Positions 49,926-55,876 of a DNA stretch of 64,000 nucleotides are shown here, one piece after another. Positions within the stretch are counted from its first letter, which is position 1. Each line of letters begins with the position of its first letter. The notes beneath the pieces are model-generated. The model saw nothing but the letters and a program-made list of their open reading frames with translations, did no database searches and was not told the origin of the DNA. Origin of the DNA: Thermoanaerobaculia bacterium (GTDB taxonomy: Bacteria; Acidobacteriota; Thermoanaerobaculia; Multivoradales; Multivoraceae); NCBI GenBank assembly GCA_963664405.1, contig OY761158.1:1184001-1248000 (forward strand), given 5' to 3'. The position numbers and the translations under genes are program-made.

Positions 49926-52508
49926 CTAGTCGCCGCTCTCCCCAACCCAAAAGGGGCTCGACCAGGCCATGCTTCCGTCGATCTGACGGACCCGCAGATA
50001 ATAATAATCGCCAGGCTGGGCTTCCCCCTGATCGGTAAAGCTGAAGTCCTGGTCCAGAGCCTGCCCGCTGGTCACGATCTGCGCCGAGAGCGCGTCGGTG
50101 TGCTTGAGCACCTGATACTCCTTGCGCTCGACCTGGCCCTTCAAATCTCCCAGCCGGAACTCCACCGTATTCGCCGGCAACTCCTGCCGCACTCGGGCAT
50201 AGCCGCCCGACCCCGAGGACTCCGTCGTTTTTTCCATATCGACGGTGATCACCGTATCCGGGCTCGCACCACTCAGCTCGAGCAGCAGCGATTTGCCTCG
50301 CCCGCGGGTCGGAAAGTCGAAATCGATTCGGTTGCGCCTCGCCGCATCGCCGGCAACGCGATAGGTCGCCGGTTGCGTGAACCACGGATCCCTGTACCCG
50401 GTCAGCCGCGCGCCCTTGACGTTTATCGATCCTTTCCAGGGACGCCCGCCGCGAGGAACCACCCGCTCGCCATGGACCTCCGTCGACGACTCGAAGGTGA
50501 TCTGCACCTGAGCCTCATTCGAGAGATCGCTCTCCAGATACCTCTTGGTGTACACGATAGTCCCGTTCTTGATCACATCGATCGCATCGATCGGTGCCGT
50601 GCCGTTCACCCGGCAGTCGATCCGCCGAACCGAGGAGTTCTCCTGACGCATGCCCATTCGCCCGCCGTTGAGCGTCACGTCGAGAAGGATCCGCTCGCCC
50701 GTCGTCGCATAGGTCGCACGGTTACGAAGCGCGCTGAAGATCTCGTCGGGACTGTTCTCTCCCGCCAAGGTCGCCGCCAGGCCACCCAGCTGTCGATTGC
50801 CGATGCCCGAGTATCCGGGGTGGCCGTTGTGGTTGTCGGATGCCCCGACGAAACCGACGTCGAACCCGTTCTGCAGGTACTTGTTGCCGAACCAATCGAA
50901 GGTGCCATGCCCCGACTGAATCTCGACCAGTCGCTCCATGTCGGGGTCGCTGTTCGTCCAGTCTCCGGCTTGATGAGCGTGAGGAATGATCAGCACATCG
51001 TCGGTGCCGTTCTGTCGGCGCAATCCCGCATAGAGCTCGTCGAGCAGGGGCGCCTCTTGATTCGGCATTCGGCGTCGCCCGGGCGTGTCACGGAAAAACA
51101 CGTTGTGGTGGCCACCATAAGGGAGCCGCGAGGTCCACTCGAAGCCGAGGATGGCGGTGAACTCACCCGGCACCCGGTATTTGTCGATCATCTCCTGCAG
51201 CGTTCGCCACTCACTGTCGTCCATCCAGATGTCGTGCTCAGACAGACTGAGAAAGTCGAGCCTGGCTACGTCGCGCCCGAATTTGTAATAGCCGTCCGGC
51301 GACCCCTGCCCCTCGGCGAACGCCGTGTGCCCGTGGGTCTCGCCCCAGTAAATACGATGCCCCGGATCGCTTTCCACCCGCACGGGATTGCTCGTCGCCT
51401 GCATCGAAGCGTCGGCGTTGCGAACCGTGAAGCGATAGATGCCCGGCTCGCTGAGACGCACATTCTCGAGCAGCGACATCGCCGGGCTTCCCGCCGCGAT
51501 CGTTCTGAACGGTTTCCCGTTAACCAGTACCTCGAGCGCGGGCGTAACCCCGGAAGAGAGGTTCTTGCTACGGTCCTCGGCTCGCACGGCTAGGGTGAAC
51601 GGTTCATCCGGTTCTACGATCGAAGGCGCCACCGCATTGACGTAGCGAACTTCGTTGCGACCGATCACTTCAAACGAAGGCCACCTCGGCCGCAGCAGAT
51701 CGCCCTTGCCCTCGATATCGGCGTAGAAGTGCAAGATCACCTGATCGTTCGACGCATCCTGGAGCCTGAGCCCGGGCCCACCGCCGGACCTCTCACCGTA
51801 GGTAATCGTGATCGTCTCGCCTTCCGCGAGCGCCGATCCACTCAGACGAAAGGGAAGGACGGCGCCGCGAAGCTGAAAGCTCAGCCACTCCGCCCAGGGC
51901 CTGCTCTGTGTAAAGGTCGCGTCCGGATTCGAGCTGCGAATGGTGACGTAGTTCTCCTGGGCCGGATCGTCGACCTGGATTCCCACACGTCGGCCCCCAC
52001 CCCGAAGAAGAATGCCGCCGCCCTCGGCCATACCCAAGCTTCCAACGGTGTAAATCTGCGTCACGGTGACGAGCTCGCCGGCATGAAAGGGTCCCGAGGG
52101 AGTGAGAGTCAGAGAGCCGACCGCGCCGGGGTGCTCGTCCTTGATCTGGAATTCGCGCGTATAGCGCCGGACAAACTCCGATACCGTCGCCACCGGCATC
52201 TGAGCCGCCCCACCCAGCCCTCGCAAGACCCGATTCGCGTTGGCCGTAAGCTGCGGAAAGCCATCGGGCACCGGTCCTCCCGTCAGCGAGTAGGCGTTGG
52301 CCCACTTCCACAGGGTGTCGAGCCGTTCGCTGAGGACCGCGGCATCGCTGCTGCTCTGGCGAGCTTCATCCTTCAACAATTCGACTCGCTGCCGTAGCTC
52401 GGCACTCAGGTAGTCGTCGCGGTCGCCTCGGTCTCCCCGCTGAGCGGTAAGCACGAAGAAGAGCGCGCATAGGGTTGCGAGGCCGATGGCTGTCCGGGGT
52501 CGATTCAT
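49926..52508 (-). CDS. Secreted DUF3604/CehA-McbA-like PHP-fold metallohydrolase (paralog 2)
   Basis: YWGETHGH, SEHD, GHHNV, PHAHQ, ASDNH, YYYLRV..AWSSP; collinear with 24566-27181. Confidence 0.8.
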   Translation of the reverse strand: MNRPRTAIGLATLCALFFVLTAQRGDRGDRDDYLSAELRQRVELLKDEARQSSSDAAVLSERLDTLWKWANAYSLTGGPVPDGFPQLTANANRVLRGLGGAAQMPVATVSEFVRRYTREFQIKDEHPGAVGSLTLTPSGPFHAGELVTVTQIYTVGSLGMAEGGGILLRGGGRRVGIQVDDPAQENYVTIRSSNPDATFTQSRPWAEWLSFQLRGAVLPFRLSGSALAEGETITITYGERSGGGPGLRLQDASNDQVILHFYADIEGKGDLLRPRWPSFEVIGRNEVRYVNAVAPSIVEPDEPFTLAVRAEDRSKNLSSGVTPALEVLVNGKPFRTIAAGSPAMSLLENVRLSEPGIYRFTVRNADASMQATSNPVRVESDPGHRIYWGETHGHTAFAEGQGSPDGYYKFGRDVARLDFLSLSEHDIWMDDSEWRTLQEMIDKYRVPGEFTAILGFEWTSRLPYGGHHNVFFRDTPGRRRMPNQEAPLLDELYAGLRRQNGTDDVLIIPHAHQAGDWTNSDPDMERLVEIQSGHGTFDWFGNKYLQNGFDVGFVGASDNHNGHPGYSGIGNRQLGGLAATLAGENSPDEIFSALRNRATYATTGERILLDVTLNGGRMGMRQENSSVRRIDCRVNGTAPIDAIDVIKNGTIVYTKRYLESDLSNEAQVQITFESSTEVHGERVVPRGGRPWKGSINVKGARLTGYRDPWFTQPATYRVAGDAARRNRIDFDFPTRGRGKSLLLELSGASPDTVITVDMEKTTESSGSGGYARVRQELPANTVEFRLGDLKGQVERKEYQVLKHTDALSAQIVTSGQALDQDFSFTDQGEAQPGDYYYLRVRQIDGSMAWSSPFWVGESGD

Positions 52509-53226: not shown

Positions 53227-54264
53227 TTATCTGTGTGCAGGTAAAGGCACGCCTCTGCCAAGATCCCTGGTTCGCTGTCTGGTCCTCGAAACGAAGGGGT
53301 TGTCCTCCAGGTGCTCGTCGATGGGATTGATCGCTCGCCCCAGAAAGCGCATCGCGTCTCGAGTCCTAAGCGCCATGAATTGATTCCCGATGTGATTGGC
53401 ACCGCGAACCAGCCGATACTCGTGCATGATGCCCTCGTCGAAGAGAATCCGGTGGAGAAACTCCGCGCCGCGATAGAGAAGGAGCACGTCCTCGTCGCCG
53501 ACCTCGAGGTAGATACTCATGCCCGCCTCGCGGATCCTCGCCGGGGCCTTGGCAACGATTGTGATCGGGTGGTTGGCGTTCCAATAATCGGCGTCGACGG
53601 GAGATCCGAAGATGGCGGGGTACACGTCCTCTCTGTAATGGGTGTCGAGAGACAGCGTGTCCTCCCAGCTTGCGACGGCCTCGATGGCCGGTTCGAGGGC
53701 AGCAACACCGGCGAATTTCTCAGGATACTTGAACGCCATCCTCAGCGAGCCCATGCCGCCCATCGAAGTGCCCATGAGGTACACCTGGTCCGGATCGACC
53801 TCGTAGCTCCGCAGCAAATGAGGTAGATACTCCTTGATGATCATCGACTCCCAGTTCTGGGAGCCGTCGCGATAGTCCATGTAAAACGATCGGCCCGCGG
53901 TTGGCGTGCTCCAGATGGCGGGTGCCAACTCGCCGGCATTGGTCACTTCGTCGATCGCAGCCGTCATGCCCTCGAGCTGCCTGGCGGAGCCGCCCCCGCC
54001 GTGCAGGTACAGGATCAGTGGGCTCGCCTCGCCCTTGCGGAGGCCCGGTGCGAGATAGACGCCGTACTCGAGCTCCGAGGGACTTTGCGCAGGGTCGGCC
54101 GCCTGCATGATATCTAGGCTGAAAGTTCCCGGCGTGGAGGAGGGATTTCCAGTCGGGGCCGCGAGCTCGACGCCGGCACTCGCGAGGGCAGAGATCGCCA
54201 GAGAACCGAGCAGAGTGACGACCGGCATTGCCAGCCGTCGATCGCGAACAGAGATTGCAGTCAT
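53227..54264 (-). CDS. Secreted alpha/beta hydrolase (esterase family)
   Basis: Signal peptide; YLHGGG; GTSMGG nucleophile elbow; GDED; GANH. Confidence 0.85.
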   Translation of the reverse strand: MTAISVRDRRLAMPVVTLLGSLAISALASAGVELAAPTGNPSSTPGTFSLDIMQAADPAQSPSELEYGVYLAPGLRKGEASPLILYLHGGGGSARQLEGMTAAIDEVTNAGELAPAIWSTPTAGRSFYMDYRDGSQNWESMIIKEYLPHLLRSYEVDPDQVYLMGTSMGGMGSLRMAFKYPEKFAGVAALEPAIEAVASWEDTLSLDTHYREDVYPAIFGSPVDADYWNANHPITIVAKAPARIREAGMSIYLEVGDEDVLLLYRGAEFLHRILFDEGIMHEYRLVRGANHIGNQFMALRTRDAMRFLGRAINPIDEHLEDNPFVSRTRQRTRDLGRGVPLPAHR

Positions 54265-54321
54265 GTTTTGAGCCCCTATCTGATGTCGTAAGAGTGAAGC
54301 CCGGATTATGACCGAATCACA

Positions 54322-55703
54322 TCAGCCAGGGCGGCGACCCCCGCCTCCTGGACCTCTTTGAAACTCGCTCTCGGAGACAAATCCATCGGAGTCGGCATCC
54401 AGACGGTCGAACCTATCCCGCATCGGCCTGGGCGCCTCGTCCAAACTGATGCGTCCGTCACCATCGGCGTCCAAGCTGCTGAAGTCCGGCCGGCCCCGAC
54501 CCCCTGGGCCTGCGCGCCCTCGGGCCCCGCCACCTCGGCCGCCGCCGGGTCCGCCCGGTCTCCCGCCCGGCCTTCCCCGGGGCTGTGGCCCGTCGGCGGT
54601 GGTTTGGATGCTCCAATCGTGACTCTGGTCGCGGGCGAGCTTTATCCGGTAGCTCTGGTTGACCGGCACGCAGAAGGTCAAGGCATCGTCACAGGCGTAG
54701 TAGAAGACATCCAGGTCAAGAGGCTCATCCACACTCTCGGCGGTCACATCGATCAAGAACTCGCGGGGGTCTGCGTCCGCCTCGGCCTCAACCTCGGGGC
54801 CAACTCCGCTCGCGGGCGTGACCGTGACTCCAGCTGGTGCGGTGAGCTCGAACTTGACCGGGCCGGCCTCGTTATTCCAATGCACGCGGTAGAGGGGATC
54901 GAGATGGAACGCCAGGTACATCTGGCCATTGCCGTCGGCAAGGATTCCAGGGTCGCCTTCCGCGCGGATCTTGGCGTAGAACGGAACCTTGCTTTCTTCC
55001 ACCAACGCCTCGACCTCGATCGGCCACATGACCTCGGGTTTCTCGATCCGAGCAACGATGTCCTTCGCCACTGTAGGGGCCGGCGGCTGCGCCGGCAGAT
55101 CCAGGTCTTCAACCCGGGTGGGCTGCTCGACCGCGCCCACCAGCCGCTCCATGTCAGCTCGTAGCTCCGCCGGGTTGCTCCAAGCGCGTCGGGCGACGAT
55201 GACGCCTTCGGGTCAATCACCAGCTCGCTATTCGGCGTCTGACCCATGGCCTTGTGCCACACGTTGTCCATGGTATCGGCGAGCCAATTCACCGATGTGC
55301 CGGTCACGCGCTTGGCTTCCGCCACGTGCATCAAGCGTTCCTCGATGGTGACCGGGCTGACGTAGTTGTTGTACTCGGGGTGCGCGAGGGGCTTGTAGAC
55401 GTAGTAGAAAACGACGCCCTTGGGAGCGTAATCTCTTTCGATCGTCTCCCAACTGGGGACGTTACGCAGAAAGGGCGGTCACGTAAGGCAGCCGAGGGTC
55501 ATCACCGTGTAATGACCCCGGGTGAGATCCCTCACTTTAGCCGGCTTACCCTGATCATCGACGAGAGTAAGGTCCGGGACACTCTCGCCGATTTCTGGCG
55601 CCACATCGAATCGGCCGTCCGCTCGCCTCTCTTGGGCGACGGCGATACTGGCTTGAATCATCGCGCCACTGATGAGCAACAGGGTTGCAAAGCGATGGCT
55701 CAT
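54322..55703 (-). CDS. Secreted deiodinase-like selenoprotein fused to nDsbD-like and EF-hand domains (UGA=Sec at 55479-55481; one frameshift at about 55211)
   Basis: Reading through TGA gives LGCLT-U-PPF...YVYKPLAHP...EER...DTMDN; adding 1 nt at IDP/EG joins ORF 54322-55152 with YACDDALTFC and two DxDxDG EF-hand loops. Confidence 0.8.
55435..55478 (-). promoter_or_regulatory. Bacterial SECIS-like hairpin directly 3' of the in-frame UGA
   Basis: CGUC-CCC[AGUU]GGG-A-GACG upper stem; apical loop starts 25 nt after UGA with G as second loop base; lower CUUUC/GAAAG stem. Confidence 0.65.
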
Positions 55704-55876
55704 GTCGGACTCCTATGCCCAGGCTTTCGTCGAGAAGGACTTGCGTTTGGCCCCATCCTACCGCACAGCAGGTCGGCCTCGGGACTCGCCGACGCCAAAC
55801 CCCGCCCTTCGTCAGGGAGTTGAAGAGTACCGGCGATGGACGCTCCGGCTCGGTGGCCCGGACCAAGCCGTCCGCC

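Follow-up and report, generated by a model that had tools for sequence, protein, structure and literature searches.

A predicted selenoprotein gene of Thermoanaerobaculia joining a deiodinase-like domain to a DsbD-like dithiol domain and EF-hand loops

How are three open reading frame (ORF) fragments, interrupted by a TGA codon and by a break of frame, to be read on the minus strand of a 64,000-nucleotide stretch of DNA from a Thermoanaerobaculia bacterium (contig OY761158.1)? The whole of this stretch is called the window here, and gene coordinates are counted within it. An earlier note, made from the letters alone, took the fragments for one gene of about 460 amino acids encoding a secreted deiodinase-like selenoprotein with a fused dithiol domain and EF-hands. 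Our analysis bears out the single gene: counting a base missing at 55204-55206, the minus strand from 55703 to 54322 reads as one gene of 460 codons, and the orthologues of five relatives as well as two paralogues in the same genome encode this protein without any break of frame, in 387-466 residues, so that the downstream domain is not a separate gene in these relatives. The overall explanation that we find best, and consider probable on the sequence and model evidence given below, is that the gene encodes an exported selenocysteine (Sec) reductase that would be recharged via its own DsbD-like dithiol. Even on a plain reading, the annotation of a selenoprotein gene is corrected here and in many other genomes; the interest would be greater should the reading as an internal relay or as a dehalogenase prove true.

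Reading through the TGA codon

From its ATG the opening frame reaches the TGA right after G-C-L-T, and read-through in the same frame (frame A) yields PPFLRNVPSWETIERDY..YVYKPLAHPEYNNY..TIEERL..WLADTMDN..SELVID. A sensible reading then changes frame between 55215 and 55204, continues as ..GVIVARRAWSNPAELRADMERLVG.. and meets no stop until 54324-54322. This second frame (frame B) holds the motifs HWNN and DPREF, the stretch FYYACDDALTFC, a 34-residue Gly/Arg/Pro linker and two canonical EF-hand loops, while the N-terminal domain of the window copy carries YVYKPLAHP, TIEERL and LADTMDN. The elements listed in the earlier note (signal-like N-terminus, GCLT-UGA-PPF, hairpin, the N-terminal motifs, Cys pair, linker and EF-hands) all lie where it had placed them. 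The features are as follows.

54322..55703, minus strand: whole gene, frame A 55703-55215 and frame B 55212-54325, then the stop
55710..55714, minus strand: ribosome-binding site AGGAG, 6-7 bases upstream of the ATG at 55703, read from the sequence
55703, minus strand: start ATG; the opening frame translates as MSHRFATLLLISGAMIQASIAVAQ
55635..55703, minus strand: predicted signal peptide, N-terminus MSHRFATLLLISGAMIQASIAVA, with basic start, hydrophobic core and AVA before Q, from the sequence
55120..55613, minus strand: thioredoxin-fold deiodinase-like domain, split in the window by the missing base; from Pfam, NCBIfam, a PDB profile search and an orthologue model with Foldseek
55479..55490, minus strand: redox motif C-L-T-U within GCLT-TGA-PPF, the TGA being 55481-55479
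55443..55461, minus strand: SECIS-like hairpin, CGTCCCC-AGTT-GGGAGACG, 17 nt downstream of the TGA
55204..55206, minus strand: site of the one-base loss, plus strand CC in the window and CCC in public contigs
54631..55026, minus strand: core of the DsbD-N-like beta-sandwich, from the model of 54598-55107
54871..54882, minus strand: HWNN motif, its W, N and N invariant in the family alignment
54670..54693, minus strand: Cys pair of the C-terminal domain (C-domain), C-DDALTF-C, within FYYACDDALTFC, near-invariant in the family
54487..54588, minus strand: Gly/Arg/Pro-rich linker, from the sequence; the matching stretch is of low confidence in the orthologue model
54364..54471, minus strand: EF-hand loops of the DxDxDG type, DADGDGRISLDE at 54471-54436 and DADSDGFVSESE at 54399-54364
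54322..54324, minus strand: stop codon TGA, here a true stop, read from the sequence

We infer that the protein is exported to the periplasm because of the signal peptide predicted here and the lipoprotein-type signals of several orthologues, the N-termini of the orthologues being of signal or lipoprotein type (for example LLPLAAC and LLALGCS).

That the TGA encodes selenocysteine and that this is a real selenoprotein gene we hold to be very nearly certain from the comparative evidence. The earlier note had made its reading depend on Sec machinery in the genome, and selA (423 bits), selB (340 bits), selD (362 bits) and one tRNA-Sec are all present. The selD gene (L010, C1:388007-388930) has one in-frame TGA itself and would therefore encode a selenophosphate synthetase that contains Sec; at C1:565727-566650 there is another selD-like gene, which lacks a TGA. 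When 41 genomes, the bacterium's own and 40 relatives, were searched with the N-terminal part, five strong orthologues (58-65% identity) were found, each with exactly one TGA and at the same place, and three further TGA-containing copies were found in the genome itself, namely the two paralogues and one canonical deiodinase-family gene.

A wider comparison came from a collection of species genomes, one genome per species, which was scanned for the motif of the C-domain and gave 496 matching stretches. Among the best 80 loci, which were analysed, G-C-(L/F)-T-TGA-P stands 196-204 codons upstream of the motif in 73, a TGC replaces the TGA in one (L113, where the frame is disturbed) and six have no in-frame motif. 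The gene is adjoined by selA in 19 of the 80 loci, mostly just downstream and on the same strand, and by selB in 15; in these related loci (L037-L116, for example L045:5771-7279 and L051:4488-6389) representatives score 549 bits for selA and 314 bits for selB. Twenty full-length database homologues were fetched, of which 19 have Cys at the Sec site and one has Ala, so that homologues with TGA or Cys at this position, as the earlier note had expected, are both found. The recurrence of the TGA in the five orthologues, the two paralogues and the 73 loci goes well beyond chance. A metagenome scan with one Cys form (P0124) gave a single usable locus, itself a Sec form. Within the phylum the search met one copy without a stop at the site (L160, G094:C7:448492-449625), where TCA (Ser), one base away from TGA, stands at the Sec position, followed by a fully intact hairpin; either the site has been inactivated recently or the base is an error.

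The hairpin after the UGA, likewise proposed in the earlier note, proved to be conserved, with a covarying closing pair. It has a stem of seven positions, one of them C-A, and a loop of 4-5 nt with G as its second base; the 81-nt stretch around it folds at -28.8 kcal/mol (z -2.66). In the 2005 Sargasso Sea study the rule for bacterial SECIS elements is a G in a small apical loop (PMC1088965), and such a G is found here. Statistics drawn from 81 Sec-form sequences, 74 of them distinct, gave 87.1% paired cells against 84.0 +/- 0.4 in shuffles (none of 500 reached the observed value) and 33-56% when the partner was slid. The closing pair joins two third codon positions and is C-G in 60 sequences, G-C in six, A-U in three and unpaired in five; at another position of the stem 56 sequences have a C-A mismatch and 18 have U-A. 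Wobble positions within the stem are invariant or nearly so, and those just outside it have no majority base. An Rfam scan around the TGA returned no relevant family, its sole row being a chance snoRNA match (E 7.9).

Could the TGA nevertheless be an ordinary stop, the fragments being separate small genes or non-coding remains? Public gene callers read it so: each of the nine database homologues that were fetched starts only downstream of the TGA, and where a source name is given it is "hypothetical protein". The amino-acid alignment, however, continues on both sides of the TGA in all relatives, and translation of the upstream piece by itself would give 74 residues and stop one short of the active site. 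Together, the Sec machinery, the conserved TGA, the hairpin, the Cys forms and the selA/selB neighbourhood leave little room for an ordinary stop, which we rejected as scarcely credible. The expectation that standard annotation would miss the gene is thus confirmed by the truncated entries, and a large family has been systematically truncated and left unnamed by public annotation.

The break of frame at 55204-55206

With the TGA read as Sec, the second interruption has to be explained. The earlier note described a 1-nt slip and called for a check of the reads at about 55211. Logan contigs of four public runs were aligned to window positions 54250-55800 (1551 bases). The contigs of three runs (X1, X3 and X4, from two studies) equal the window with no other difference than an extra C after plus-strand position 55204, which restores the frame as ..VIDPKGVIVARR..; in two of these runs a single contig spans all 1551 bases. 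In the fourth run there is a relative, about 96% identical (58 differences), with an extra G four bases away, and it too is in frame. A database protein that is 97% identical (P0003) reads through the site as ..VIDPDGVIVARR... The public runs are not independent of the assembly, because they may include its source. Contigs identical but for the extra C mean that the intact gene exists as DNA, and the restoration of the missing base in them therefore points to an assembly error or a strain variant rather than a programmed slip. The slip as a feature of the gene accordingly falls away. We think it highly likely that the break is a homopolymer consensus error of the single-contig assembly, and failing that a strain variant.

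Were the deletion real in the sequenced strain, the gene would be a genuine pseudogene giving only a truncated product, its work being left to the genome's two intact paralogues. The window sequence as given is indeed out of frame, and at least one relative (G078) likewise carries a copy split over two frames. We nonetheless judge this improbable: over 1551 bases the contigs from three runs, belonging to two studies, differ in nothing but the extra base, the loss sits in a short homopolymer run of a single-contig assembly, as is typical of consensus errors, and there is no further decay, both frames being open to their ends and every family-invariant residue being kept. The split copy of the relative (L163/L166, G078:C2:2235577-2236867) lies on two overlapping frames; the evidence suggests the same kind of consensus error, which is suspected because that genome too was assembled in very few contigs.

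Programmed ribosomal frameshifting was also considered, since the overlap of the frames falls on a C and G run. It was rejected, its probability being practically negligible: none of the orthologues and paralogues inspected needs a shift, the extra base in otherwise identical public contigs contradicts it, and a slippery heptamer is absent at the break site.

Two redox domains and the case for a relay

What, then, does the restored protein look like? The N-terminal domain is related to the deiodinases. Of 74 N-domains of the family, 73 match T4_deiodinase (PF00837), 70 Redoxin and 56 AhpC-TSA at E 0.01, and NF038285, "deiodinase family protein", is the only NCBIfam model that is significant for it. 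A family profile run against 177,635 PDB sequences found mouse Dio3 (4TR3) as its best match (E 3.1e-7), with an uncharacterised protein, Dio2 and ResA ranking next; T-U-P-P-F, A-H-P and D-T-M-x-N all fall within the Dio3 alignment by HMMER. The AlphaFold model of an orthologue (L019; pLDDT 91.2, pTM 0.87) gave Foldseek matches of similar E (1e-10 to 1e-8) to the C-terminal part of DipZ, then ResA, then Dio3/Dio2. Deiodinases are hence the nearest known family by profile and by fold, although by fold ResA scores as well.

The resemblance to Dio1-3 (PF00837; 4TR3 for Dio3, 9H48 for Dio2) comprises a common thioredoxin/peroxiredoxin-like fold with Sec opening the first helix in T-U-P-P-F, the succession of A-H-P, E-(E/D)-R and D-T-M-x-N in the same order as in Dio3, and Foldseek TM values of 0.71-0.76 with rmsd 2.3-2.8 over about 175 columns of the L019 model for Dio3 and Dio2. 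The differences are no less clear. Mouse Dio3 has S-C-T before U where the window family has C-L-T, so that the active site is a CxxU pair of thioredoxin type and not the S-(C/A)-T-U of deiodinases; E-E before A-H-P in Dio3 corresponds to K-(A/P)-L; and the animal enzymes are membrane-anchored, whereas the window family is predicted to be exported, soluble or as a lipoprotein, and carries two additional modules.

With ResA, TlpA and CcmG the N-domain shares an exported thioredoxin fold and a pair of the C-x-x-C type (Foldseek TM 0.80-0.85 to ResA). The family lacks the W-C-x-x-C context of TlpA-like proteins, as well as the P-x-x-x-T-x-x-C of peroxiredoxins, a Cys standing where the peroxiredoxin Thr stands; unlike in peroxiredoxins and TlpA-like proteins, what comes downstream of the active site is a deiodinase-type series of motifs. 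We conclude from these comparisons of sequence and fold that the deiodinases are the nearest named family and the window family a separate subfamily.

Bacterial deiodinase-like selenoproteins as such are known. They appear in the reports on the Sargasso Sea in 2005 (PMC1088965) and the GOS data in 2008 (PMC2398784), and reviews of 2022 and 2026 list the bacterial family with PF00837 and the motif "UxxC" (PMC9312934, PMC13188914). The published family (NF038285), as far as these texts describe it, resembles the present one in its Sec, bacterial SECIS, Cys-form homologues and membership of the deiodinase superfamily, and differs in having UxxC where the window family has CxxU; neither a DsbD-like domain nor EF-hands are mentioned in the accessible parts of these accounts (PMC1088965, PMC2398784, PMC9312934, PMC13188914). 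A full-text search of the literature, with figures and supplements outside its range, found no deiodinase-like selenoprotein fused to a DsbD-like domain or EF-hands, and the sets of 2005 and 2008 may overlap with the present family. The fused three-module architecture thus appears to be without a description in the literature searched. One locus of the same genome (L028, C1:2219000-2220400) encodes a canonical deiodinase-family selenoprotein with GSYT-TGA-PPF (PF00837 115.7 bits, NF038285 171.7 bits) and without a DsbD-like domain or EF-hands; together with the fused copies it means that the classic and the divergent fused families coexist in one genome.

The second domain was compared by structure and by profile. 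The AlphaFold model of the window C-domain (54598-55107) is a beta-sandwich (pLDDT 91.6), for which E. coli nDsbD supplied the three best Foldseek matches and seven of the 14 best rows listed, the matches being weak (E 1.5e-3 to 9e-3, TM 0.35-0.54). An alignment of DsbD_N built from 35 domains of the own genome and its relatives was then set against the C-domain family with hhalign, which returned a probability of 94.6% (E 6.9e-8, 112 columns), against 0.4% in a column-reversed control. Here Y-F-A-C...C-x-P falls on Y-Q-A-C..C-x-P and G-F-H-L-D-P..H-W-N-N on G-W-H-I-Y. With nDsbD and ScsB (PF11412; 1L6P, 1JPE, 3PFU; 1Z5Y, 1JZD, 1VRS; 6C29) the domain shares Y-x-A-C-x(n)-C-x-P near its end and, by its model, probably the Ig-like beta-sandwich. 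It differs in the spacing of the Cys pair, six residues in C-DDALTF-C against two in the C-dd-C of the DsbD_N consensus, in the HWNN and DPREF motifs, which are specific to the window family, and in its position, downstream of the Sec domain, while the alpha domain of DsbD lies upstream of the membrane domain. The C-domain is in our estimation a divergent homologue of DsbD_N, to which we attach high confidence, with its Cys pair in the equivalent place. The nDsbD-like middle domain of the earlier note therefore stands as to homology between profiles, with the Cys pairs aligned, and does not stand as to membership of PF11412, whose cut-off it misses. The likeness to deiodinases fares similarly, holding for the nearest known family and failing at the cut-offs of PF00837 and NF038285. 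Since the scores fall below the cut-offs of all three models, the protein is a relative of these families and not a member.

In DsbD itself nDsbD takes electrons from the thioredoxin-fold gamma domain and passes them to thioredoxin-fold partners such as CcmG, DsbC and DsbG. If the fused dithiol did the same within one chain, a selenolate in the periplasm would attack an oxidised or halogenated substrate, for which a peroxide, an organohalogen, a protein disulfide or a sulfenate may all be envisaged; the Cys three residues upstream would resolve the selenenyl intermediate to a selenenylsulfide, which the DsbD-N-like dithiol would reduce. This dithiol might in turn receive its electrons from the membrane reductase DsbD or from some other thiol donor of the periplasm, and the EF-hand tail may bind Ca2+ for stability or localisation. 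A possible electron source is at hand in the genome, which has one full DsbD (DsbD_N and DsbD_TM in one frame of 659 codons).

A relay of this kind would lead one to compare the fate of the two redox sites. Among 119 relatives covering both, CxxU or CxxC stands together with the Cys pair of the C-domain in 103, neither is left in 14 and two are discordant, one having CxxT with the pair and one CxxC without it. The joint loss is weakly consistent with a relay. Thirteen of the losses form a clade (P0199, P0210, P0218, P0219, P0221, P0223-P0225, P0228, P0229, P0233, P0237 and P0239) in which CxxU/C has given way, mostly to DxxD or ExxD, and the C-domain lacks its Cys pair; a large extension at the N-terminus brings ten of these proteins to 680-830 residues, and the clade looks like a side branch of the family without redox function.

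The view that the fused dithiol serves as an internal electron relay seems to us evenly poised. The competing account, that the C-terminal beta-sandwich is no relay and that its Cys pair forms a structural disulfide, the domain serving in substrate binding, anchoring or oligomerisation while CxxU is reduced by free partners, is unlikely, yet it carries real weight. By structure the C-domain is a generic Ig-like sandwich and it scores under the Pfam cut-off of DsbD_N. DipZ, the DsbD homologue of M. tuberculosis (2HYX, 5CYY), offers a precedent of architecture with a thioredoxin-like domain followed by a non-redox beta-sandwich in one chain; its C-terminal part is the best Foldseek match of the full-length L019 model (E 1.4e-10, 330 columns), differing in domain orientation (rmsd 13.9, TM 0.29/0.37) and sharing 12-14% identity. 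The profile-to-profile match, however, aligns the Cys pair together with its flanking Y-x-A-C...C-x-P, and in 117 of 119 relatives the Cys pair has shared the fate of the CxxU/C motif, both being present or both gone.

Several results weigh against an exported Sec reductase with its own DsbD-like donor, and they are gathered here. The N-part of the window scores 19.4 bits for T4_deiodinase (cut-off 27), 18.9 for Redoxin (cut-off 26.6) and 17.6 for AhpC-TSA (cut-off 26), and 33 bits for NF038285, whose cut-off is 250. Four intact relatives fare little better, with 16.3-26.0, 17-27 and 17-26 bits for the three Pfam models and 42-71 bits for NF038285 (to E 1e-19), some of them lying just over the Redoxin and AhpC-TSA cut-offs (Redoxin 27.4 in paralogue L026, AhpC-TSA 26.3 in the L019 domain). 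For the C-domain, a six-frame search of the genome with Pfam DsbD_N (PF11412) at E 1e-3 found eight other domains and neither this gene nor its paralogues, and the best score among the relatives is 13.4 bits in one orthologue (E 0.079) against a cut-off of 25. VIA-align (48,161 chains) sees a generic Ig-like sandwich, with nDsbD at rank 13 (Z 6.5) and ScsB at rank 35 (Z 6.1). The 14 double losses go back to only some two independent events, 13 of them falling in one clade (support 1.0) and the other being P0167. A conserved DsbD or CcdA neighbour was not found in the neighbourhoods of the 80 loci. The window copy itself is out of frame, and if this is real in the strain the copy is dead. Lastly, none of the public runs carrying the sequence is on record as RNA, which is uninformative on expression.

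Might the enzyme be a true reductive dehalogenase, applying deiodinase chemistry to marine iodinated or brominated aromatics? In favour of this, no solved or curated relatives stand closer than the deiodinases, Dio3 has T-U-P-P-F, A-H-P and D-T-M-x-N in common with the window family, and the relatives come mostly from marine water and sediment by their titles and labels. The deiodinase match nevertheless stays under the family cut-offs, K-(A/P)-L replaces the E-E before A-H-P of Dio3, the active site is a thioredoxin-type CxxU pair, and Redoxin and AhpC-TSA score nearly as well as T4_deiodinase; we regard this reading as improbable. Equally speculative, and held at low probability, is the fuller version in which a self-recharging periplasmic selenoenzyme performs dehalogenation or another two-electron reduction of marine organohalogens with electrons from DsbD via its own dithiol. 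If true, this would be a bacterial deiodinase-type enzyme with a built-in electron donor. The relay by itself, if true, would provide a natural single-chain hand-off from an nDsbD to a thioredoxin fold that ends in a selenium enzyme, and a tractable bacterial model for the re-reduction of deiodinase-type Sec centres.

The third module confirms the two EF-hand loops that had been seen: EF-hand_5 (35.5 bits, E 5.6e-9), EF-hand_6 (33.6 bits) and EF-hand_1 (30.7 bits) each score over the Pfam cut-off on two stretches, with canonical 12-residue DxDxDG loops. The number of EF-hands among the relatives varies from 0 to 4.

Distribution, neighbours and variant architectures

The family is represented by 828 cluster representatives at E 1e-10 in a library of 1.84 billion proteins. 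Its taxa are uncultured Gammaproteobacteria, Acidobacteriota, Gemmatimonadota, Planctomycetota and Verrucomicrobiota, and the record titles and run labels of the relatives mostly indicate marine water and sediment. Of 301 genomes sampled from the phylum, 13 carry the family, the genome studied here among them. The two paralogues of this genome (L026, C1:2329400-2331400; L027, C1:1993800-1995600) are intact three-module genes, 53-56% identical in the N-part; TGA, hairpin and Cys pair are present in both, with one or two EF-hand loops apiece.

The neighbours of the gene in the window encode an esterase, an NAD-dependent epimerase, a DUF924 protein, a DUF3604 protein and an enoyl-CoA hydratase and give no hint of function. 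The DUF3604 protein, of 860 residues (49926-52508, minus strand), lies three genes downstream on the same strand with the DUF924 and esterase genes between, and no link was seen. A promoter scan around the gene found no promoter-like site. A terminator-like hairpin with a T-run lies inside the gene at 55414-55429 (minus strand), about 50 nt past the TGA, one being found where 0.8 is expected by chance.

A few relatives depart from the common architecture. In one (P0123) the entire module is present twice in tandem, three (P0127, P0128 and P0146) have an extra N-terminal stretch with EF-hand-type loops, and four (P0136, P0152, P0167 and P0193) carry large unrelated N- or C-terminal domains.

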